This document shows positions 27,016-50,296 of a stretch of DNA of 64,000 bases, piece by piece. This stretch comes from a virus. Taxonomy: Duplodnaviria; Heunggongvirae; Uroviricota; Caudoviricetes. The stretch lies in the IMG/VR virus record IMGVR_UViG_2939127364_000001. One strand, 5' to 3'. A program made the position numbers and the translations under genes. The notes beneath the pieces were generated by a model. The model ran no database searches, was not told the origin of the DNA, and saw only the letters and a program-made list of their open reading frames with translations. Position 1 is the stretch's first letter; the number at the start of each line of letters is the position of its first letter.

Positions 27016-27102
27016 TGGCGGAGAGTAATGGAATCGAACCATCATCGTTTGCACAATGGGACGGATTTCAAGACCGCTTGAGCACCATGCTCCCTACTCT
27101 CC
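27016..27102 (-). tRNA. tRNA-Ser (anticodon UGA), type II with long variable arm
   Basis: Minus strand GGAGAGTAGGGAGCATGGTGCTCAAGCGGTCTTGAAATCCGT...GGTTCGATTCCATTACTCTCCGCCA; anticodon loop CTTGAAA; one mismatch in anticodon stem. Confidence 0.6.
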
Positions 27103-27202
27103 AGCTATTGTGATGGTCGGTGCTGAACTCCGACACAGGGTTGTAGCAAGCCCCGCAAAGCGCGCACTACTGTAGTTGCGGCACATCAGCCTGTGCATTC
27201 AT

Positions 27203-27281
27203 CACAACGGTAAGATCACTACCTTTCGACCAGTCATTGTGCACATGAACGACGATTAACCGTAATGATCTTATCGTTGTG
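27203..27281. repeat. Hairpin element E1 (15-bp arms CACAACGGTAAGATC / GATCTTATCGTTGTG, one mismatch)
   Basis: Arms at 27203-27217 and 27267-27281. Confidence 0.55.
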
Positions 27282-27332
27282 TTGTGAAGCCAGATGCTTA
27301 TCTTCTGGTTGCTTCAAAGAGCTGCACTTCCT

Positions 27333-27421
27333 CACAACGGTAAGAGCACTGGTCTGACTCTATCGATTTACGGGCTTGTGGGTCAGTATCGCCGATTCGC
27401 CCAATGCTCTTACCTGTTGTG
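27333..27421. repeat. Hairpin element E2 (arms CACAACGGTAAGAGC / GCTCTTACCTGTTGTG) abutting tRNA-Thr 3' end
   Basis: Arms at 27333-27347 and 27406-27421; paralogous to E1. Confidence 0.55.
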
Positions 27422-27422
27422 T

Positions 27423-27498
27423 TGGTGCCGGTTAACGGGATCGAACCGCTGACATCCTGCTTACAAGGCAGGCGCTCTACCAACTGAGCTAAACCGGC
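27423..27498 (-). tRNA. tRNA-Thr (anticodon UGU)
   Basis: Minus strand GCCGGTTTAGCTCAGTTGGTAGAGCGCCTGCCTTGTAAGCAGGATGTCAGCGGTTCGATCCCGTTAACCGGCACCA; canonical cloverleaf, encoded CCA. Confidence 0.8.
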
Positions 27499-27502
27499 AA
27501 TT

Positions 27503-27589
27503 TGGTGGGGAGTGATGGAGTCGAACCACCCGAGTCGCAATGACAGTAGATTTACAGTCTACCCCGCTGCCCCTACGGACTAACTCCCC
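27503..27589 (-). tRNA. tRNA-Tyr (anticodon GUA), type II
   Basis: Minus strand GGGGAGTTAGTCC...GGGTAGACTGTAAATCTACTG...GGTTCGACTCCATCACTCCCCACCA; anticodon loop CTGTAAA. Confidence 0.65.
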
Positions 27590-27594
27590 TAAAT

Positions 27595-27669
27595 TGGCGA
27601 TGGTGGGTGGATTCGAACCACCGACCAGTTGGTTAACAGCCAACTGCTCTACCGCTGAGCTACACCATC
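27595..27669 (-). tRNA. tRNA-Asn (anticodon GUU)
   Basis: Minus strand GATGGTGTAGCTCAGCGGTAGAGCAGTTGGCTGTTAACCAACTGGTCGGTGGTTCGAATCCACCCACCATCGCCA. Confidence 0.75.
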
Positions 27670-39967: not shown

Positions 39968-40756
39968 TTACACATGAGCGCCGTAAATTGCCCCAGCTTT
40001 AGTCCATGTAGGCGCGTTGCCAGTTACGGCTTTACCAGCTGCCCCGCCGCCGTACATTGTCCCCAATCGTCCAGTAGCAGCAGCACCAGCGGCACCTACA
40101 TTACCTCCACTGCCGCATGTGTATTGAACAGCGGTAGAGCCGATCAAATATTGAGCACCAATCCCGGGAGCGGTTAGAGTGCCAGAAGTTGCCGCACGCG
40201 AAGTTGAAGCTGGCGGCCTTGTAGTGTTTGCAACACCAAACGGGCGACCGCCACCACCCATACCACCATCGGCTGAGTTACCGCCGCCACCACCGCCACC
40301 ACCGGCAATAGCGCCGTTATTGGTTATTCTTAAACGAGTCCCAATCCCGTTGTTAATAGCAGTGCCACCGGCAGCACCGCCACCTTTAACGCCACCATTA
40401 CCGCCACGGCCATAGACAGTTACACCTGCGTTGATTACAAGGCTGATATAAGAGTTGGTAAGTGAACTCGGGAAATCTAAACATGGCACGCCGCTACTGG
40501 ACGACACCAGATCCCCTGTAATGGTAACAACGACTGGCGTCGCCCCCTGGGATTTTAAATAGTTGATCAGTGTGTCTTTGTTGTAGTTATGATTCGCACC
40601 GATGCTGTACTGAACTTCTTTAGATCGCCCGGCCATTTGAGACATTGAACCAGCCGCTGGCAGTTGCACCGCCGTTCGAGCCGCACTCATCCATCTCTGG
40701 CCTGTCACACTGACAGCCGAAGACCCAATCCAACCGGGAACACCGACAATTGGCAC
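39968..40756 (-). CDS. gp38-like tail fiber adhesin with glycine-rich motifs
   Basis: GTG start at 40756 preceded by AAAGGAG; N-terminus PIVGVPGWIGSSAVSVTGQRWMS and GRSKEV...TGDLVSSS...GRGGNGG...NNGAIAGGGGGGGG resemble recalled T2-type gp38; directly downstream of long tail fiber. Confidence 0.6.
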   Translation of the reverse strand: MPIVGVPGWIGSSAVSVTGQRWMSAARTAVQLPAAGSMSQMAGRSKEVQYSIGANHNYNKDTLINYLKSQGATPVVVTITGDLVSSSSGVPCLDFPSSLTNSYISLVINAGVTVYGRGGNGGVKGGGAAGGTAINNGIGTRLRITNNGAIAGGGGGGGGNSADGGMGGGGRPFGVANTTRPPASTSRAATSGTLTAPGIGAQYLIGSTAVQYTCGSGGNVGAAGAAATGRLGTMYGGGAAGKAVTGNAPTWTKAGAIYGAHV

Positions 40757-40822
40757 ATCTAATCTCCTTTTTGATGTGAATATCCTGAATTGGTGAGGGT
40801 GGCCCCTCACCATTCACCTTGA

Positions 40823-43800
40823 TTACATTTTTGCCTTCAGTTCGCGCACTTCCTCGCGCAGCTCTTTGACAGCCTCGACCAACATGCCGATAACGCCGTT
40901 GTAGTTAAGACGCAGACGAGGCTCTCCTGACTGATCGTTATGGTCAACCGTTACCAGTTCAGGCTGAACATTCTGGACGTCCTGAGCGATGAGGCCGCCA
41001 GACTGCTCATAACGGCCACAGACCTGAATCTCGTAGAGAACACCTTCGATCTGCTCCAGCTTGTCGAGCGCCCGCTCAATTTTGCGAATATTGCGCTTAC
41101 TACGGCGGTCGGAACGGATGTAAACGTCGTTAAAGCTACCATTCCCACCACAAACCCAAGTGCCGTCATTTTGCAAATAAGCATTAGCATCAGTGCCATT
41201 ATCAGTACGTGAGTTGTTTATCATGTAAAAGCCGAATTGGCTGTTACCTAAACCACCAACAAAAAATTTCCTATCAGCATGGTCTTGTCTTAACAATGCC
41301 TGAGCAGAACTAGTTGATACCTGATTAAGACCAAAAATAACGTTTTGATCTCGCATGCTAATCCAAGAACCTGAGTTGCTGTTAATAGAAAACCTGTTTG
41401 CATATACCCAGGAATTGGTTTTTATATCTCCAGTAACGTTGACAGGCTTATTGCTTTGAACACTCCCACTCGTAAAGCGTAAAACTTGGGTGTTATTGGC
41501 GTAAACATCAAGAATGCCATCTCCATTTTGTTTTAATCCGGTATCGCTATCACCCAGAACAATTGAGTTCCCACCAAGACCATTGACCACACCCAGCCCA
41601 AGACCACCGTCAACAACAGCACCATTGCCCATTGCTACTCTGCCATTAGTGAGATTTACATAAAATGGACGAAGCGAACCTATATCACCATTTTCTCCCT
41701 GGTCTTTTGCTGTCGGGATAAGGTAAAAATTATTTTCGGAACGGCGAAAAATCATCCCGTATGCCGCATCGTAAATGCGCAACCCATCCGTAGAGCGGAT
41801 CTTAAGCTGTCCGGACATCGTACCGCCGCTGTTTTTCATAAATAGCGCATCAATCCAGCCTGCAAATCCCGACTTATTAATGTATAAATTTCCATCATTT
41901 GCCAGAATGCCTCCACCTTGCGTCTTGAGGGGCTGACTCACATTTTGCAGCGTCAGCACACCAGTCATTGTTCCGCCAGAAATCGGTAACGCACCGACAT
42001 CAGCCGCTGTGGGTTTATGAGCAGTGGTATAGACCTGCGCCCAACCAGACCAATTCGCTGTCGAAGTATCACGGCGTGAACGAACATAAACCGGTGCATG
42101 AGCACCATTCGTTCCGCTCCAGCCAATAAGCAACTCGCCCTCACCAGCAGCACTCGCACCTTTCATGTGCAATACGTTGCCATACGTGGTCGGGTAGCTA
42201 TTGTTGTACGCCTCATACATTTGAATGCCAGCAGTGCCTTGAGTAGAGCCACTTAACGCCGTTACGGGCCCGCGTGATACCAATGTATTAATGTTGATAT
42301 CGCCTGAGCCATCAAACTTAACACCATTGATGTTTCTAGCAGTTTGCAACTTCGTAGCTGTTGAAGCATTACCGTTCAAGCTACCATTGATGCCGCCAGT
42401 AACATTGAGTCCATTACCAATGGACACAGCACCGCTGGTATTATTAATTGTAATCGGTCGCAAACCGTTCCATGAACCTAATGTGTCTCCTGATGCTGTT
42501 AGCATGAAATATGTGTTCGACCCATCATTACGGATAAAGAACCCAAAGCTACCGTAAGCAATGCGGAAACCATTTGCATATTTTGAAATGATCTCGCCAG
42601 AAGATGTCAAACCTCCAGATAATGTCCCACCGGTAAGAGGTAATGCACCAACGTCAGATGCTGTTGGTTTATTTTTCGTGTTATATACTCTTCGCCATCC
42701 TGGAGAATAATCTGTGCCATTAAATACATAGATAAACTCCGCATTAGTGAGAGCACCAGAGACACTCGTCGTTGTGGCCGTTGTTATACGGATCGTATAA
42801 TTGTTTGAGCTACTACCGTTATTAAATACCTCTATAACAGCTCCTGCCAATGGAATAACGCCACAACCAGTTTCACTATTTGGTATGGTTGCACTATTGG
42901 CATAGGCCCACGCACATCGAGCAATCCATGACCTTGTGGTAAACGCGCCGTTATTTTGCAATAACGTCACTAACTGTGCTGTTGTTATTGCTCCGCCATT
43001 ACTTCCTGTAGTTAACCAACCAGTAGGAGATGCCGGGCAACCTATATCGGCAGGCCCCAACGATATATTTCTTGTGCCATCAAACGCAATACCGTTGATG
43101 GTTCTTGCGGTTTGCAACTTCGTAGCAGTAGCCGCGTTGCCCGTTGTATTCTGATTACCAGTCGTATTAACACCTGGCAAATTAATATTCGCAGTACCAT
43201 CAAAGCTCACGCCGCCGATAGTTCTTGCCGTCTGAAGTTTTGTAGCAGTTGCAGCATTACCAGTGGTGTTCTGATTACCCGTAGTATTTACACCTGGAAG
43301 GTTGATATTTGCAGAACCGTCGAAACCAACTCCACCGATAGATCTTGCCGTCTGCAATTTCGTTGCTGTACTTGCATTACCATTTAATGTTCCGGTGATC
43401 CCACCAGTAACAGACAACGGACCTGAAACTGTTCCTCCGGTTGTTGGCAGTGCTCCAATATCTAACGGCGTCGGTTTCTGATGTGTGCTATACATCGTAT
43501 AAACAACACCATCGGTAACGCTGGAAGGCTTACTCGCTGAATATGTTGGCGATGTATAAATAGAAACTGTCGCATTTGCAGTACAATCCCAATGGATATT
43601 TACACGAGTCGCATAATTGCCAATCTCAACGTAAATATCATATGTATCGCCGGATGTGTTGATCCAGGCGAAATTCGTTAATCCGACAGCTGTACGCTTC
43701 CACAAAGCACCTGTAATCCCTTTGGGGTTTCCATTGCCTGCTCGTAGAACCAGTTCTGAAATACCTGCCTGATGTGGGGAGCCAACGTTAAACCCTGCGC

Positions 43801-45469
43801 CACCAATCAGGCTTATGTAAACCACGGAACTGGCTTGTGGCATGGTTACAGTTGCCAGCTTGAACCATCCGGCACCACCACTAAAAGACATTGTTATTGA
43901 ATTTAAAGTACCAATATCTTTCGGCGTTAATGTGATATCCGCAGTCAGTGCTTTACCGTTAACTTTTCGGTTAGATGGTACCCTGCCATTCGCATTGTCA
44001 TTGGCTGCTTTAACTGCCTTCGGTGTCGCGGCAAGCGTTTCAGATGTGCTGTTGGTTGCACTACTGAGCTGGACTATCCCCTTTTTCGTCGTGCTCGCAT
44101 CCTCAAGCGCCACGGCGGATGCAATATCCTCTGCCCGTTTTGCCGCTGTCTCAGCGCGCGTTGCTGCGGATTCTGCCGTACTTTTGCTCTGTGCTGCCGC
44201 CGTCGCACTGCCAGCAGCCTCTGTTGCCTTCGTGGATGCCGTCGTGGCGCTGCCCTTCGCTGCTGACGCCTGTCTGGTCGCCTCATCTTTTGAAGCAGAC
44301 GCAGATGATGCCGATGACGCTGCCGAACTGGCGGACGATGCCGCTGCCGTTTTTGAGGATTCTGCACGGGTTTCCGACGCTTTCGCGTTCGTTTCGGATG
44401 TCTTCGCTGCGGAAGCTGACCTCGCTGCTGCGCTGGCCTGTTCAGTGGCTTGGCCAGCCTTCGTTGTGGCTGTTGAAGCAGACGATGCGGCACTTTCTGC
44501 CGATTTTCCGGCGGCGGTGGCACTGGCTGAGGCCTGCCCGGCACTTGTTGACGCGGCACTGGCAGACGACGCAGCCGCTGTTTTTGAGCCTGCCGCAGCC
44601 GAGGCGCTCTGTCCCGCTGCCGTTTCAGAAGACCTGGCGTTCGTCTCGGACGTTTTTGCCGCCTTCGCGGAATTTCCTGCCGCCGTTGCCGAGGAAGCGG
44701 CATTACTGGCGCTCGAGGCTGCGCTCGTTTCTGATGATTTCGCTGCCTCTTTTGAGGCCGCCGCATCCCGGGCTGAGGTGGCAGCTTCTGACGCCTTCGT
44801 GGTCGCGGTGGATGCAGAAGTGGCTGCAGATTTTTGTGACGCTGCAGCATTCGTTTCAGATTTTTTCGCAGCAGTTGCACTCGCACTTGCGGCACTTTGT
44901 GAGGATGCCGCAGCGGATGCACTTTGAGACGCTTGAGAGGCTTTTTCTCCAGCAGTATTGGCGCTTTCTGCTGCTGCGGCAGCACTGGCCGCCGCCTCAC
45001 GAGCTTTGTCGCCAGCAGCATCAATCGCGTCAGTGTTATTTTTATACCACTCAACGTTTTCGTTGTGCTCGTTGACGATCTGCATTAGCGGCTTAACGGT
45101 CACTTCTGTACCGTCTTCACGCTCGATTGTCACCTCATCCAGCGCAGTCAACCAACTGCGTATGGACTTGGAATCAGCCGACATACGCGACATTAGCGCA
45201 GTAAAGCGCGCGCTAAACTGTGTTAAGTCGCCTTCATAGGTCGTAATGATTCGGCACGGAACCTCAGACTGAGTTTCGCCGGTATAAGGTTCTGAGAGAA
45301 CAATATTCGTATCGCTTATTACGCGCTTGATCTCGTACAGCTTATTGTCGGGGCCAATGACGATCATCCCCGGCAACACACCATTAGCTGTTACGTTCCA
45401 GGCTGTCCCTGCCCCAACCAGAGTATTGCTACCCTGTGTAAATGTGATAGTACCTTCCCTGTACCACAT
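40823..45469 (-). CDS. Long side tail fiber protein
   Basis: 1548 aa; Ala/Ser/Thr-rich low-complexity region, tandem tail-fibre repeats (ATATKLQTARTIGGVSFDG), C-terminal SDRRSKRNI segment resembling S74 intramolecular chaperone domain. Confidence 0.85.
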   Translation of the reverse strand: MWYREGTITFTQGSNTLVGAGTAWNVTANGVLPGMIVIGPDNKLYEIKRVISDTNIVLSEPYTGETQSEVPCRIITTYEGDLTQFSARFTALMSRMSADSKSIRSWLTALDEVTIEREDGTEVTVKPLMQIVNEHNENVEWYKNNTDAIDAAGDKAREAAASAAAAAESANTAGEKASQASQSASAAASSQSAASASATAAKKSETNAAASQKSAATSASTATTKASEAATSARDAAASKEAAKSSETSAASSASNAASSATAAGNSAKAAKTSETNARSSETAAGQSASAAAGSKTAAASSASAASTSAGQASASATAAGKSAESAASSASTATTKAGQATEQASAAARSASAAKTSETNAKASETRAESSKTAAASSASSAASSASSASASKDEATRQASAAKGSATTASTKATEAAGSATAAAQSKSTAESAATRAETAAKRAEDIASAVALEDASTTKKGIVQLSSATNSTSETLAATPKAVKAANDNANGRVPSNRKVNGKALTADITLTPKDIGTLNSITMSFSGGAGWFKLATVTMPQASSVVYISLIGGAGFNVGSPHQAGISELVLRAGNGNPKGITGALWKRTAVGLTNFAWINTSGDTYDIYVEIGNYATRVNIHWDCTANATVSIYTSPTYSASKPSSVTDGVVYTMYSTHQKPTPLDIGALPTTGGTVSGPLSVTGGITGTLNGNASTATKLQTARSIGGVGFDGSANINLPGVNTTGNQNTTGNAATATKLQTARTIGGVSFDGTANINLPGVNTTGNQNTTGNAATATKLQTARTINGIAFDGTRNISLGPADIGCPASPTGWLTTGSNGGAITTAQLVTLLQNNGAFTTRSWIARCAWAYANSATIPNSETGCGVIPLAGAVIEVFNNGSSSNNYTIRITTATTTSVSGALTNAEFIYVFNGTDYSPGWRRVYNTKNKPTASDVGALPLTGGTLSGGLTSSGEIISKYANGFRIAYGSFGFFIRNDGSNTYFMLTASGDTLGSWNGLRPITINNTSGAVSIGNGLNVTGGINGSLNGNASTATKLQTARNINGVKFDGSGDININTLVSRGPVTALSGSTQGTAGIQMYEAYNNSYPTTYGNVLHMKGASAAGEGELLIGWSGTNGAHAPVYVRSRRDTSTANWSGWAQVYTTAHKPTAADVGALPISGGTMTGVLTLQNVSQPLKTQGGGILANDGNLYINKSGFAGWIDALFMKNSGGTMSGQLKIRSTDGLRIYDAAYGMIFRRSENNFYLIPTAKDQGENGDIGSLRPFYVNLTNGRVAMGNGAVVDGGLGLGVVNGLGGNSIVLGDSDTGLKQNGDGILDVYANNTQVLRFTSGSVQSNKPVNVTGDIKTNSWVYANRFSINSNSGSWISMRDQNVIFGLNQVSTSSAQALLRQDHADRKFFVGGLGNSQFGFYMINNSRTDNGTDANAYLQNDGTWVCGGNGSFNDVYIRSDRRSKRNIRKIERALDKLEQIEGVLYEIQVCGRYEQSGGLIAQDVQNVQPELVTVDHNDQSGEPRLRLNYNGVIGMLVEAVKELREEVRELKAKM

Positions 45470-45562: not shown

Positions 45563-48500
45563 TCACAGACGGCCAATTCTTACTCGTAAGACGTTGTTAT
45601 CGTCATAAACGTCAATCCGCTGACCATTTATAACCAATCGCCCATTGCCGCCGCTATTACCGTTGATCTCAAGCGTTCCATTTTTGCCGAACCGCCATCC
45701 AGATCTACCGCTAACAAAATTGGTAGATTGCAGATCGCCTACTTTTGCATTGGTGATTGTGCCATCCTTGATATACGCTCCATTCATATAGGCGATACTG
45801 TTTTCGATAACAAATGGCGTTGTGATCTTCCCGTTAACAGAGTTGACCAAACCAAACCTGTCCGCCTGAACCAAAAACTGAGATAGCCCAGTGGTGTCAA
45901 TACCAAGCGCAATACCGGCAACATACTTCTGACCTCCGCTCGTTGAAGTCTCCATTTTCAACGTCCACGCGGTTGACACTTTTTTGTTGGTATCAGCAAT
46001 AGCTGTTGCCTGCTGTTGAATTGTCGCGGTATTTCCATCCACCTCTGCTTTCAGAGTATCGATTCGCCCACTCAGAGCATTATCTGCCTGCGTTCTCGCT
46101 GTCGTTTCAGTTGTTACCGCCGCGGAAATGTTGGCTGCCGTTTGAGACTCTAAGTTTGTGATTTGAGTCGCCAATGCAGCATCTTGGTCTGTACGCGTTT
46201 TCGTTTCGGTTGCTACAGCCGCTTTAATATCCTCTTTGTATTGAGAGGTCAGCTTGGTGATCTGAGACGACAACGCCGAGTCAGCATCAGTTCGAGCCTG
46301 CGTTTCAACTGCAACGGCCGCACTAATATCTTTCGCTGTCTGTGCTTTTAAATTTGAAACCTCTTTTGTTAAAGCGGTATCACCATCTGCACGAGCCGTT
46401 GTTTCTCTGGCAAGAGACGCCTCGAGATCATTAGCTTTTGCTGTAAGAGACGTAATCTGGGTAGACAATGCACTATCGGCATCAGTCCTTGCTTTTGTCT
46501 CTACAGCAACCGCTGCGGCAATATCAGTTCCGGTTTGTGCTCGCAGGCTGTTAATTTCTCGTGAGAGCGCCTGGTCAGCACTTGCTCTGGCCTCCTGCTC
46601 CTGAGTGATGGCAGCGGATATATCACCGTCAACCTTTGACTGAAGCTGGTTTATTTGTTTGGCTAACGCAGAGTCCCCGCTTGCTCGGGCCTCCTGCTCA
46701 CTACGTATTGCAGCAGAAATATCATCATCAACCTTTGCCTGAAGTTGGGTGATCTGGCTTGCCAGAGCCGAATCTTCCGTTGCTCGGGCTTCTTGCTCTT
46801 CCTTAATAGCTGCGACGATATCGTTGCTTACTTTCGACTCAAGCTGAGTGATCTGTGTCGTCAGAGCTTCATCGGCAGATGTACGAGCCTCCTGCTCTGT
46901 ACTAATCGCCGCGCTGATATCTCCTTCAAACTTAGATTGCAGCTGAGTGACACGCTTTGCCAACGCTTCATCGCCATCGGCACGAGCGGTGGACTCTTCC
47001 AGAATACTGGCCTTAATGTCTTCGCCAATTTCTACGCGAATTTCCTCAACCTTCGTGGCCATTGCAGACATATCATCAGCAAAGGTTTTCTGTGTTGTTG
47101 CGATCTTCGCGTTATTGACCATCTGCTTGTGCTGGTCTTCATCTTGACGAAGAGCCAGGTCAATATTTGTTTTGGCTAACGCCTCAATGTTCGTAGTCAG
47201 TTCTGCACTTGCACGATCGACCTCTGCAACCGTCTTTTTCATTTCTTCAACGGCAGCGGAGCTTTCCTCTACCGTTGACTGCAACACTTCCAGTTGTTTA
47301 GCGTTTGCAGCATCGCCTTCAACACGAGCCTCGCTTTCCTTAGCAATAAGAGCCGCCGCTTCATCTCTTGCAGCCTTTATTGCCTCGACTGTATTAGCGA
47401 GAGCTTTATCGTGTTCAGATACGGTGTTTTCGATTTCAACAATTGCAGCATCAGTAGCATCAATTTTTTCAAACGCTTCATTGACCTTGTCGATCGTTGC
47501 CGAAACCTCACCTTTAAGCTCGGTTTGTGCGTTCTCCAAAGCATCGCTACGCTCGTTGAATTTTATTTCAAAATCCGCGAGGTTATCGCTGAACTGCTTA
47601 TCTAATTCAGCTATATCTTCCTTAACGTCGTTTACCGCCCCCTCCAAAGATTCGACGCTCTGGTTGATATGCTCATTTAACTCGTCAACTGCTTCTTGAG
47701 AGGCTTTGCTGTTGATGTCCTCAAGCAGAGCCTGACCAAGCTCGGAAGATGTAATTTTGCCAGTCAGGAACGACAGTACATCGCGAGTTGTCGCCTCTGT
47801 ACCCAAGTTTGAGTTCGGAGGACTTAACATACCTCGCTTGTTCGATGCTCGAACCCAGTAATACCACGTTTCACTATCCCCAAGACCAGCATGTGTAAAG
47901 GTGGTGCTTGCAGACTCTGCGATCAGTTTCGCCGTATCCAGATTGTTGGTCTGGGATGCGTAAACATTAATGTGATCAAGGTCTACCGAATCTGGATTAA
48001 CCCAATTCAGTATCACATTACGATAGTCTCCAACGGCCGTTAATGACGTTGGTGCATCCGGCGGTGTCATTGTGCCCAGCACCTGATAAACGGTACTGAT
48101 AATTTCTGTTTTTTTACCGTTGAATGAAACCGCATACAGTTGGAAGTCGTAGCGTCCATTCTCCGCGACATTAACAATTTCGTATTGCTCTTCGGTTACA
48201 CGCGCCGATTGCCAGTTCGATATATTGTTTTCATCAGAACGTCGCCAACTGATCCAATACTCTGGAGATTTCCCTTCCCATGTTGCAGTCAGTTTTACTG
48301 ACAGGTTGCCAGGGCTTGAGAGATAAGTCCCTTCGGTGATTTGCAAATTAGACGGCTTGGAGTAAGTCGGGTCCAATACCGTCGTATTCTGCGGGATAAG
48401 CGTTGCACCATTGTCGATCGCCTCATATTTAGACGGATTGTTCTCAACAGCGGTGATGTCAAAGCTACCCGGCGTTTCCCCCTGCGCGATGTTAACGATG

Positions 48501-50296
48501 CGAACGCGCATAGGTTCGAGATCTGGTTCTGTAATTGTCCAGACACCGTTCAAAACAGGCGTTTCCGCTGACGACAGGGCTTTTGAAAACGTAACTTTTG
48601 TTATATTTTCGCCAGTTTCAAGAACATCGCGTTCAACGATTTTGCCTTCCTGATTCAGTATTCGAATAAAGCAGCCGCCTTTGGCTAACGACACAGGCGC
48701 ATCGAGTGTGACGCTGTTTTTGGTAAACGCCACAATTCGACCTGAGTTACGTTTGCCTGCGCGATATTTGTTCTGAATCAGAACGGTTTCACCAGGCATC
48801 AGAAATGACGCGTCTAAGCCAGCAGTAAATGTAATTACATCCGACTCCATTCTGGCGGTATATAAAAGCCACAAACCAACTCGGTGAGCCTGCCCTCGGC
48901 TTGTACAGCCAAATGCTACGACTTCTGTTTTACGCTCACCATAACGGCGCATTGCGTCCTGATCTTCGACGTACTCGATGTTTTGCTTATAACCGTCCTC
49001 CTTGTTGTTGTAGGTTACGAGCGCAACGGATGGGCGATCTTTACGCGCAGAACCTTTATAGGTAAACAATCCATCTTTGACGTTAGAGTTGGTAAACATC
49101 ATTACCGGATCTGATGGGCTATCCTGCATGATGTTGACCATCCCACCAGCCCAAAACACCATGCCGCGGAATGCTCCGGCAATATCCTGAATTAGCCGGT
49201 ATGCGTCCTGTCGACTGGTGATCTGCGTATTGATTGCAAAGCGTTTCTCTTTGCCACCAAAGCCATCATCGACCTCTTCGTCACAATATCGACCAATCTG
49301 GTACAACTGGCCAAGGTCAATCATAGATTCCGACACATACTGACCAAGGCCATATCGAGCATTGGTCAGCAAATCAAAGAGAATCCACGCGGGGTTCGAA
49401 GAAGACAACAGCTTAAAAGTGCCATCCCATACCCCAGCGTAAGTGTTACTGGACTCGTTATAGTTTGAAGGTACTCGAATTTTTAGGCCACGCACCAGAT
49501 AAGAGCGAGATGGCATGGTGCTGCCGAATTGCTCAGAGTTTACCTTCAATCCAACCAAAACAGAGTTTGGATAGTTCATCGGTGTATCGACAATTTCCCC
49601 GATTGAATCCACCCATGTATCGTTATAGAGATACTGGCTACTGTTATCATCGGTAATACGGACCACACGAACCTTGTATGCGCGTCCAGGCTTAGGCAGC
49701 TTCAGCTCGTAGCTACGGTAATAAACGCCGGTCTTCTTTGCTGTTAGCTTAATGCCAACGCTTTTTTCACCTTCCGCGACCACATCTACAAATGTTGAGT
49801 CGCCATTTGCTATCTGGAACTTGTACTCAACAGTCGTACCGTTCGTGTCACCAGTTTTTTTATCTATGCTTCGCAAAGAAGGAAACTTCATGATGACACG
49901 AACCCGATCAGCTTCATCGTTATCGATTGAAACCGTTACATAATGTGTTTTTTTTAACTGGATATTGACGGATTTAGGCGTTTCAACGAAATCAAAGCCA
50001 GACATTGGAGTCTGGTCTTGTGAACCGTCGCGAAAATCCCATGTGATTCCGCTGAAGTTGGAGGAACCGTCTTCATTTACAATCGGCAGATCGTCGATAA
50101 AAATAGATCTTGCGCCATTTACTAAGCCGCCAATTACCCCTTCCCCAAGAAGATCGAGGATAGCGGCCATTGCACGAGAATTTACGGTATCGTCGGCTTC
50201 AACCGGTGTACGGCTGGAGCTTTTGCTGCTTTTTTTACCACCCGCACCGGCAATAAACAGCGGTAGCTTTTTCTTCTTGAACTGTTCCATGTTCAA
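45563..50296 (-). CDS. Tail tip central fiber protein (lambda J-like)
   Basis: 1577 aa; N-terminal two-thirds alignable by eye to lambda J (e.g. YAGVWDGTFK, FGCTSRGQAHRVGLWLL); C-terminal part replaced by repeat-rich coiled coil. Confidence 0.85.
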   Translation of the reverse strand: MNMEQFKKKKLPLFIAGAGGKKSSKSSSRTPVEADDTVNSRAMAAILDLLGEGVIGGLVNGARSIFIDDLPIVNEDGSSNFSGITWDFRDGSQDQTPMSGFDFVETPKSVNIQLKKTHYVTVSIDNDEADRVRVIMKFPSLRSIDKKTGDTNGTTVEYKFQIANGDSTFVDVVAEGEKSVGIKLTAKKTGVYYRSYELKLPKPGRAYKVRVVRITDDNSSQYLYNDTWVDSIGEIVDTPMNYPNSVLVGLKVNSEQFGSTMPSRSYLVRGLKIRVPSNYNESSNTYAGVWDGTFKLLSSSNPAWILFDLLTNARYGLGQYVSESMIDLGQLYQIGRYCDEEVDDGFGGKEKRFAINTQITSRQDAYRLIQDIAGAFRGMVFWAGGMVNIMQDSPSDPVMMFTNSNVKDGLFTYKGSARKDRPSVALVTYNNKEDGYKQNIEYVEDQDAMRRYGERKTEVVAFGCTSRGQAHRVGLWLLYTARMESDVITFTAGLDASFLMPGETVLIQNKYRAGKRNSGRIVAFTKNSVTLDAPVSLAKGGCFIRILNQEGKIVERDVLETGENITKVTFSKALSSAETPVLNGVWTITEPDLEPMRVRIVNIAQGETPGSFDITAVENNPSKYEAIDNGATLIPQNTTVLDPTYSKPSNLQITEGTYLSSPGNLSVKLTATWEGKSPEYWISWRRSDENNISNWQSARVTEEQYEIVNVAENGRYDFQLYAVSFNGKKTEIISTVYQVLGTMTPPDAPTSLTAVGDYRNVILNWVNPDSVDLDHINVYASQTNNLDTAKLIAESASTTFTHAGLGDSETWYYWVRASNKRGMLSPPNSNLGTEATTRDVLSFLTGKITSSELGQALLEDINSKASQEAVDELNEHINQSVESLEGAVNDVKEDIAELDKQFSDNLADFEIKFNERSDALENAQTELKGEVSATIDKVNEAFEKIDATDAAIVEIENTVSEHDKALANTVEAIKAARDEAAALIAKESEARVEGDAANAKQLEVLQSTVEESSAAVEEMKKTVAEVDRASAELTTNIEALAKTNIDLALRQDEDQHKQMVNNAKIATTQKTFADDMSAMATKVEEIRVEIGEDIKASILEESTARADGDEALAKRVTQLQSKFEGDISAAISTEQEARTSADEALTTQITQLESKVSNDIVAAIKEEQEARATEDSALASQITQLQAKVDDDISAAIRSEQEARASGDSALAKQINQLQSKVDGDISAAITQEQEARASADQALSREINSLRAQTGTDIAAAVAVETKARTDADSALSTQITSLTAKANDLEASLARETTARADGDTALTKEVSNLKAQTAKDISAAVAVETQARTDADSALSSQITKLTSQYKEDIKAAVATETKTRTDQDAALATQITNLESQTAANISAAVTTETTARTQADNALSGRIDTLKAEVDGNTATIQQQATAIADTNKKVSTAWTLKMETSTSGGQKYVAGIALGIDTTGLSQFLVQADRFGLVNSVNGKITTPFVIENSIAYMNGAYIKDGTITNAKVGDLQSTNFVSGRSGWRFGKNGTLEINGNSGGNGRLVINGQRIDVYDDNNVLRVRIGRL
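46040..47030 (-). repeat. Tandem 99-bp (33-aa) coding repeats, ~9-10 units, inside J-like gene
   Basis: Repeated unit DISAAI-EQEARAS-D-ALA-QI-QLQSKV; DNA periodicity visible in 46040-47030. Confidence 0.7.

Follow-up and report, generated by a model that had tools for sequence, protein, structure and literature searches.

In the F-type pyocins, the central fibre has a J-like hub, a trimeric alpha-helical shaft that bears the side fibres, and a beta-prism tip without a canonical receptor-binding domain (PMC13455828; 10.64898/2026.02.24.707460; PMC12874032). In the F7 pyocin, a 163-residue coiled coil (residues 921-1083) is converted into a triangular beta-prism on contact with the cell, the tip opens, and the tape-measure protein is released (PMC12874032). 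Each strand is marked by a SxSxxMxxLxS motif, whose S positions are solvent-exposed in the coiled coil. A Glu or Asp at the M position is paired to an Arg at +/-4, with a salt bridge between Glu1039 and Arg1043. When Gln is placed at the small S residues A987 and A995, killing is lost and assembly is unaffected, and similar switches are predicted in 21 of 24 siphophage central fibres (PMC12874032). Here we describe a J-like protein encoded in a stretch of 64,000 nucleotides (nt) from a Caudoviricetes virus (IMG/VR record IMGVR_UViG_2939127364_000001), referred to below, at its full length, as the window. Between its hub and its tip the protein carries ten tandem units of 32-33 amino acids (aa), and every unit holds the switch motif twice, once in each orientation.

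Related fibres are known from other phages. The C-terminal part of phage T1 gp33 (residues 821-1172) is too flexible to be resolved, and AlphaFold3 predicts an alpha/beta fibre of about 37 nm (PMC11945409). In T1-like phages the receptor-binding proteins are encoded beside the J-like gene, according to work cited in PMC12892993. Escherichia phage Cyrano is the SSU5-like phage-plasmid pLF82 of Escherichia coli LF82 (PMC9928086).

Layout of the J-like protein

The product of the window gene is a central tail fibre protein of the lambda J type, from a phage-plasmid of the SSU5 family. Its DNA is 99.3% identical to the gene for "tail host specificity protein J" of Escherichia phage Cyrano, and the coordinates of the reading frame match those of Cyrano's annotated J. 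It stands at the end of the tail module, as is the case for lambda-J-like tail tip proteins: the upstream open reading frames (ORFs) match tape-measure, minor-tail and tail-assembly PHROGs in the lambda order H-M-L-K-I, and the Cyrano annotation agrees. Pfam finds FNIII-A_GpJ, Phage-tail_3, fn3 and Phage_Tail_Tip (E 1.5e-29 and 7e-34 for the first two), and the sequence matches in the PDB are the F2-pyocin fibre, T1 gp33 and lambda J. The parts of the gene, in window coordinates, are:

45563..50290, minus strand: J-like central tail fibre protein gene, 1575 aa plus stop, ATG at 50290 (from ORF and translation)
47708..50290, minus strand: hub and FNIII region, aa 1-861, common to lambda J
47024..47707, minus strand: proximal irregular helical shaft, aa 862-1089, with degenerate unit copies and a conserved island
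46037..47023, minus strand: tandem array, aa 1090-1418, of ten units (one of 32 aa, the other nine of 33 aa), with anchor motif E-x-x-[AT]-R
47023, 46924, 46825, 46726, 46627, 46528, 46432, 46333, 46234 and 46135, minus strand: starts of the ten units (high ends in the window)
45566..46036, minus strand: tip domain, aa 1419-1575 (157 aa), PF09327 Phage_Tail_Tip, ending in ...LRVRIGRL

A phmmer search pairs residues 19-861 with lambda J 3-837 (E 2.5e-124), and residues 18-859 with residues 7-843 of the F2-pyocin fibre (E 1.6e-154). This hub also aligns with T1 gp33, and its Pfam domains lie at aa 102-236, 358-521 and 745-824. The whole shaft that follows is 557 aa long (aa 862-1418), contains no proline, and is without a lambda counterpart. 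PF09327 then covers aa 1423-1557 (E 1.4e-41), and the tip aligns with lambda J 839-971, with T1 gp33 986-1168, with the F2-pyocin fibre as far as residue 1193 (of 1204), and with the C-terminus of DEV gp56. The tip is a beta-rich domain, homologous to the central straight fibre of lambda J. Shaft and tip together align to residues 882-1193 of the F2-pyocin fibre (E 1.4e-24) and to T1 gp33 (E 4.3e-30). No domain like lambda J 972-1132 was found: the alignment ends at J 971, the protein itself ends 27 aa further on, and Pfam is empty after PF09327. The repeats are thus an insertion between the hub/FNIII region and the tip, and not a replacement of the tip; compared with lambda, only the LamB-binding domain (J 972-1132) is missing.

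The initial annotation had already placed some 9-10 helical units of 33 aa at 46040-47030, which agrees well with the ten units found at 46037..47023 and with the helix predicted for them by AlphaFold2. Its boundaries and its reading of the C-terminal end needed revision. The likeness to lambda J that it gave to the N-terminal ~1000 aa is real and covers about 860 aa; the domain after the array has 157 aa and not 159; and although the LamB-binding domain is indeed absent, the repeats were taken to replace the receptor-binding end, whereas they precede a tip homologous to lambda J 839-971. The architecture of the F-pyocin central fibre and of T1 gp33 was not recognised.

The central fibre of the F-type pyocins (PyoF10 / PA0641; PDB 25vf, 25vj, 26ci; F7 central fibre protein, CFP, PMC12874032) has a similar layout, in which a J-like hub is followed by a helical shaft and by a PF09327-type tip, without the lambda receptor-binding domain. 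For the last shaft unit and the tip, the alignment with the window protein runs residue by residue. Both proteins show the SxSxxMxxLxS motif in alternating orientation, at a spacing of 15/17-18; the same Glu-Arg pair (i, i+4) is present, and the side fibre encoded downstream has a homologous N-terminal anchor. The differences lie in length and regularity: the pyocin coiled coil has 163-178 aa, is irregular, and only its last unit scores well against the unit profile, whereas the 557-aa window shaft contains ten regular units. The pyocin units that can be placed have 32 aa, and those of the window 33 aa. The pyocin is also a tailocin with PyoF11/F12, while the window belongs to a DNA-carrying temperate phage-plasmid without PyoF11/F12-like genes after J.

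T1 gp33 (PDB 9L9P chain S; PMC11945409), from an E. coli siphophage, has 33-aa units of the same family just before a tip that ends in ...LRVQIGRL, with about 3-4 recognisable units in a total of 1172 aa as against ten in the window. Lambda gpJ (PDB 8IYK, 8XCJ) shares the hub/FNIII region (J 3-837), the central straight fibre (J 839-971) and the upstream H-M-L-K-I order; it differs in having no helical shaft between 837 and 839, and in its extra LamB-binding domain of ~160 aa (972-1132), absent in the window J. In Pseudomonas aeruginosa phage DEV, gp56 (PDB 9ZE4; PMC12892993) has helical units of the same family, and its C-terminal ~60 aa align to the last 62 aa of the window J. It is, however, the 429-aa short fibre of an N4-like podovirus, it lacks a J hub, and the gp55/gp54 that its tip recruits, and that bind LptD, are encoded separately. 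The array is a shaft of a known kind, that of the F-type pyocins and T1; what is added here is the unit itself and a natural copy-number series that can be read from the SSU5 family.

The distal end varies among relatives. In a pMT1-like contig of Yersinia pestis NCTC5923 (L087) and in L053, L062, L051 and L064, the array and PF09327 are kept and the last ~30 aa are swapped for extra C-terminal domains of 135-155 aa, mutually unrelated and without a Pfam match. The central-fibre tip therefore exists as "bare" and "extended" versions within one family. In Klebsiella SSU5-like relatives (L004, Klebsiella phage vB_KpnS_p4727), the J hub is common and the distal part is wholly different past aa ~860. 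In L004 this part has ~2000 aa (2877 aa from stop to stop), with coiled-coil segments alternating with repeated globular modules, and no PF09327-type ending.

The repeat unit and its two motif copies

Every unit contains a reverse copy of the switch motif, SxLxxMxxSxS, at positions 5-15 (A5, I/V7, E10, A13, A/T15, with R14 at +4 of E10), followed by a forward copy, SxSxxMxxLxS, at positions 20-30 (A20, S/A22, I/V25, L28, S/A30). The array holds 29 motif matches as against 6.5+-2.3 in shuffled sequences, with one per orientation in each unit; the residue classes used were slightly wider than those of He et al., with G added to S, M and F to L, and M and Q to M. Alternating matches are also found in the proximal shaft, at aa 921, 948, 963, 980, 995 and 1012. 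Across 202 distinct units, taken from 84 related proteins, small residues occupy the six S positions in 99.8% of cases, as against 39% elsewhere, and the L positions are always aliphatic (100%), figures that are partly circular as the units were gathered with a profile built from the window array.

The F2-pyocin sequence allows a direct comparison with the F7 experiments, as it holds the exact residues quoted for F7 (A987, A995, A998, A1011, E1039, R1043, D950-961), with the same reverse/forward alternation at a 15/17 spacing. Pyocin E1039 and R1043 align with the invariant unit positions E10 and R14. The two residues at which Gln abolishes killing, A987 and A995, occupy motif positions equivalent to unit positions 22 and 30, and the control residues of He et al., A998 and A1011, lie off the S positions. 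In our reading, one unit would give two antiparallel strands.

The anchor motif recurs at aa 1099, 1132, 1165, 1198, 1231, 1264, 1296, 1329, 1362 and 1395, and seven positions are invariant across all ten units (A5, E10, R14, D18, A20, L21 and L28). Within aa 851-1425, self-identity is 32% at a lag of 33, compared with 11-14% at lags unrelated to 33. On the unit profile every array unit scores E 1e-15 to 2e-18, and one further isolated, degenerate match lies at aa 980-1007. Asp, Gly, Ser and Asn abound in the stretches that link the two motif copies (unit positions 16-19 and 33-2), as would be expected of latent turns.

In Pfam, no family covers the repeat, and the shaft gives only sub-threshold coiled-coil families. 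Against the whole PDB, the ten-unit profile matches central-fibre proteins only, of the F2-pyocin/T1 kind. The unit family is nonetheless large, with 1960 cluster representatives at E <=1e-3. Since its proteins reach ~25 units, the ten units of the window are not extreme. Many of these proteins end in PF09327, and some are without a J hub (representatives P0121-P0261). Spacing was surveyed in the 141 best-scoring cluster representatives among those not already collected: the unit spacings are, by falling frequency, 32, 36, 39 and 33 aa, with 31, 34 and 37 aa rare. The four preferred values are all sums of 7 and 11, which is what a coiled-coil register would demand.

The array carries two periodicities at once. 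Its hydrophobicity spectrum has peaks at 2.07 residues (beta-like, power 133) and at 3.65 residues (helix-like, power 114), as against shuffled maxima of 56+-14; both are 4-5 standard deviations over these maxima. The proximal shaft has a single peak at 3.56 residues (power 162, with shuffle maxima of 59+-12). AlphaFold2 was used to model the array (aa 1085-1418) and the tip as a monomer only, once with a 119-sequence alignment and once from the single sequence. The array is helical in both runs, with a mean pLDDT (predicted local distance difference test) score of 78 with the alignment, and the tip forms beta strands (pLDDT 83-93). The model breaks at aa ~1248-1257 and ~1379-1409, and the packing of its helices back on each other is probably an artefact of modelling a monomer. 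Foldseek on this model is informative for the tip only, with matches to SU10 (7z4b, 1.7e-7) and to the open state of lambda J (8xcj, 2.3e-6). Fully extended at 0.15 nm per residue, the shaft would measure about 84 nm, and the array alone about 49 nm. For the SSU5 allele, with 5 units and a 367-aa shaft, the corresponding length would be about 55 nm.

Copy number of the array, a candidate docking site and the proposed function

At the DNA level, in-register identity between units averages 52% (maximum 65%), the longest exact run is 12 nt, and identical residues share a codon in only 35% of comparisons. The array of the window allele is old. Because its DNA units are so diverged, Tandem Repeats Finder sees only 2.2 copies (46581-46798, 76% matches), and the analysis was then moved to the protein level. 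Most homologues retrieved with the C-terminal 486 aa are fragments of 850 aa or less, unfit for counting copies, and counts were taken instead from IMG/VR, GTDB, phage and plasmid loci, in all 80-odd related loci. Among these, the J proteins that share hub and tip have 3, 5, 6, 9 or 10 contiguous units, and lengths that rise accordingly: 1309, 1385/6, 1425/6, 1535 and 1568/1574/1575 aa. In relatives further away, unit matches reach about 12 at most.

Whole units are gained and lost. A single 99-nt indel, with an 11-nt direct repeat (microhomology) at its flanks, separates alleles L031 and L002, whose DNA identity is 99.7%. Another allele, of the same type as that of the window, lacks one unit of the window array:

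46577..46675, minus strand: one unit length (99 nt) missing in register from the allele of E. coli AH02 plasmid NZ_CP081702 (L090), at 97.7% protein identity

Among alleles, indels of the proximal shaft are of 7, 18, 25 and 36 aa. In Xenorhabdus hominickii DSM 17903 (L088) and in IMG/VR loci L069/L070, neighbouring units are 90-98% identical in DNA, with exact runs of up to 74 nt. These are very recent duplications, and the array is actively expanding in some lineages. Adjacent units of the window array, by comparison, are without the long identical DNA stretches of recombination-prone tandem repeats. The initial annotation had called such arrays prone to recombination, and had proposed Tandem Repeats Finder and a count across relatives as checks. 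Variable copy number and one-unit indels bear it out, while the window units, with at most 12 nt of exact identity, are not the usual kind of hot spot; the repeat finder does detect the repeat, in only 2.2 DNA copies, and the count gives the series of 3 to 10 units above.

Above the array lies the best-conserved part of the shaft, an island at aa 1013-1085 (47036-47254) with RQDEDQ at 1048-1053; in ten alleles it is 86-93% identical, as against 25-66% in its flanks. By likeness to the acidic kink of the pyocin shaft (D950-D961), this acidic island is a candidate docking site for the side fibre, which is encoded next to J:

40823..45469, minus strand: gene for the side tail fibre (1548 aa), which begins 93 nt downstream of J, with Pfam Gp34_trimer and Peptidase_S74
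45131..45469, minus strand: N-terminal anchor of the side fibre, aa 1-113, with homology to that end of the F2-pyocin side fibre which docks on the shaft

In pyocins, it is the OB-plus-stem N-terminal part of the side fibre that docks on the shaft (PMC13455828, PMC12874032). The window side fibre as a single sequence matches residues 3-106 of the F2-pyocin side fibre (E 0.003), and a profile of 8 diverse family members matches residues 1-110 (E 8.9e-17). These first 113 aa are near-constant across loci, and the remainder is mosaic.

The best explanation of the array, which we hold to be probable though far from settled, is a metastable coiled-coil shaft with two switch motifs per unit that refolds to a beta-prism on contact with the cell. 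The repeat with its predicted helices, the homology of hub, shaft, tip and side-fibre anchor to the F-pyocin/T1 type of fibre, the switch motif and the variation in unit number are established; for the window phage we infer a trimeric state, the fold switch itself, the docking site and the geometry of two strands per unit. The following sequence of events can be proposed. In this SSU5/Cyrano-type siphovirus kept as a plasmid, the shaft would sit between a lambda-J-like hub and a small beta-prism tip, and would be assembled as a metastable trimeric coiled coil. The conserved acidic island just above the array would bear the side fibres, and the shaft would keep the tip and the tail end as much as ~80 nm apart. 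Once the cell surface is engaged, refolding of the shaft to a compact beta-prism would begin at the tip and move upwards, with a shortening of ~4 nm per unit. The number of units would set both reach and stroke, and would change over evolution by the in-register gain or loss of whole units.

Several points weigh against this explanation, beyond the circularity already mentioned. Both AlphaFold2 runs, made on the monomer only, gave helix, and no beta-prism was predicted for J; in the work of He et al., multimer modelling was required, and the prism emerged mainly from deep alignments (PMC12874032). The legend of Fig. 5b in that paper gives 5-6 strands in the switch region, which is not reconciled with two strands per 32-33-aa unit. 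The side-fibre anchor has a second likeness, to the N-terminus of a distal tail protein (23gd_B, E 1.7e-6), which makes docking on the shaft less certain. Finally, the pyocin tip is thought to carry the separately encoded binding proteins PyoF11/F12. The 93-nt gap between J and the side fibre of the window contains no ORF, and so no PyoF11/F12-like gene, and the layout in Cyrano is the same.

More tentatively, and short of an even chance in our estimate, the 32-33-aa unit may be the modular block of a coiled-coil-to-beta-prism spring, with phages tuning reach and contraction stroke by whole units. One unit would then be one beta-hairpin layer, ~4.9 nm long as helix and ~1 nm as two stacked strands, which would give a shortening of ~39 nm for ten. 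In the SSU5 series, 3, 5, 6, 9 or 10 units stand on a conserved hub, tip and side-fibre anchor, possibly in match with the thickness of the host envelope (O-antigen or capsule).

The alternative that survives best, which we nevertheless think rather unlikely, is a static spacer or ruler: a permanently helical coiled coil that sets fibre length, for example to bring the tip past O-antigen or capsule, and never refolds; a tuning of fibre length had been suggested in the initial annotation. It agrees with the helix-only predictions of AlphaFold2 and with a copy number that varies in whole units. The preferred spacings and the proximal indels are likewise all sums of 7 and 11, in keeping with a coiled-coil register, and no such switch is involved when lambda and T5 open their tips (PMC12874032). 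However, a spacer leaves unexplained why six positions per unit, solvent-exposed in the pyocin coiled coil (PMC12874032), should hold small residues almost without exception. It does not account for the strong period-2 signal confined to the array either, nor for the Asp/Gly/Ser/Asn-rich stretches at unit positions 16-19 and 33-2. Moreover, the homologous pyocin segment has been shown to refold, and mutations at the equivalent positions abolish its function (PMC12874032).

A quite improbable reading makes the array a repeated docking platform, whose units bind side fibres or an accessory protein so that copy number gives the number of appendages. Side fibres do dock on the F-pyocin shaft, and the window side fibre has a homologous anchor. 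Yet the binding site of the three side-fibre trimers of pyocins is one short, acidic, kinked segment and not a repeat; the best-conserved shaft segment of the window family is the single non-repeated island above the array; and the middle units are the least conserved, and dispensable in relatives.

That the array is an artefact, arising by assembly expansion or collapse or by compositional coincidence in an Ala/Glu/Thr-rich region, finds support in the 2.2 DNA copies of Tandem Repeats Finder and has a practically negligible probability, as the lag-33 periodicity and the seven invariant positions speak against chance, units only 52% identical in DNA are too diverged to collapse or mis-assemble, homologous arrays occur in the 1960 cluster representatives, and the gene has the same length (4734 nt) in Cyrano, in CMS-2020a and in the nine records of highest identity listed out of 157 in PLSDB. 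The initial annotation had named an assembly error as what would overturn its repeats, and they stand.

It has long been asked how non-contractile tails gain the energy for breaching the envelope; the answer proposed by the pyocin work of 2026 is a fold-switching coiled coil. If the metastable-shaft explanation holds, the same device would be present in a widespread E. coli phage-plasmid lineage with hundreds of plasmid records, in an unusually long and regular form whose unit is legible from the sequence. Close relatives that differ by whole units would provide a length series for studying reach, stroke or host range, and the insertion or deletion of units could guide the engineering of tailocin or phage fibres. 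As long as this large repeat family has no Pfam model, such shafts will stay unannotated.

Neighbouring genes and genome setting

The J allele of the window is common. Many E. coli plasmids of ~110 kb carry it at full length with at least 94% identity, and the PLSDB search with the J gene gave the 157 plasmid records at a query cover of at least 80%. Opposite-strand ORFs over the array (46163-46351, 46745-47179 and others) are without support, and are treated as by-products of the repeat. In transmission electron microscopy the Cyrano tail is 259 nm long, compared with the 230 nm predicted from its tape measure, a figure that says nothing on the central fibre.

Past its anchor, the side fibre contains a ~330-aa Ala/Ser-rich low-complexity stretch (aa ~150-480), 40-aa (120-nt) repeats at 43097-43382, and a C-terminal Peptidase_S74 domain, an intramolecular chaperone. 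The gene is mosaic: only 58% of the side-fibre region is covered by the Cyrano fibre, and pieces of it match lambdoid prophage side fibres. It is followed by:

39968..40813, minus strand: Gp38-type tail fibre adhesin, 281 aa (PF05268, E 8e-70; PDB 6F45, Salmonella phage S16, E 4e-43)

An adhesin of this type is an unusual partner for the side fibre directly before it, which already has an S74 chaperone domain at its end. The adhesin was considered as an obligatory partner of the J tip and rejected, as Cyrano has the same J and no such gene. In other loci, small genes follow J: L035-L046 and L071 (IMG/VR), one subgroup of relatives, have a gene for a predicted 95-aa lipoprotein (MGLVIGMSKQ...LTGC...) between J and the next gene, and the distant loci L073-L081 have ORFs of 86-113 aa after J, at the position that PyoF11-like tip proteins would take. 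SSU5 is said to use the lipopolysaccharide core as its receptor. Elsewhere in the window, a cluster of four tRNA genes lies on the minus strand at 27016-27669: Ser(tga), Thr(tgt), Tyr(gta) and Asn(gtt). Ser, Thr, Ala and Asn are abundant in both fibre proteins, and a tie between the tRNA cluster and fibre expression is conceivable.

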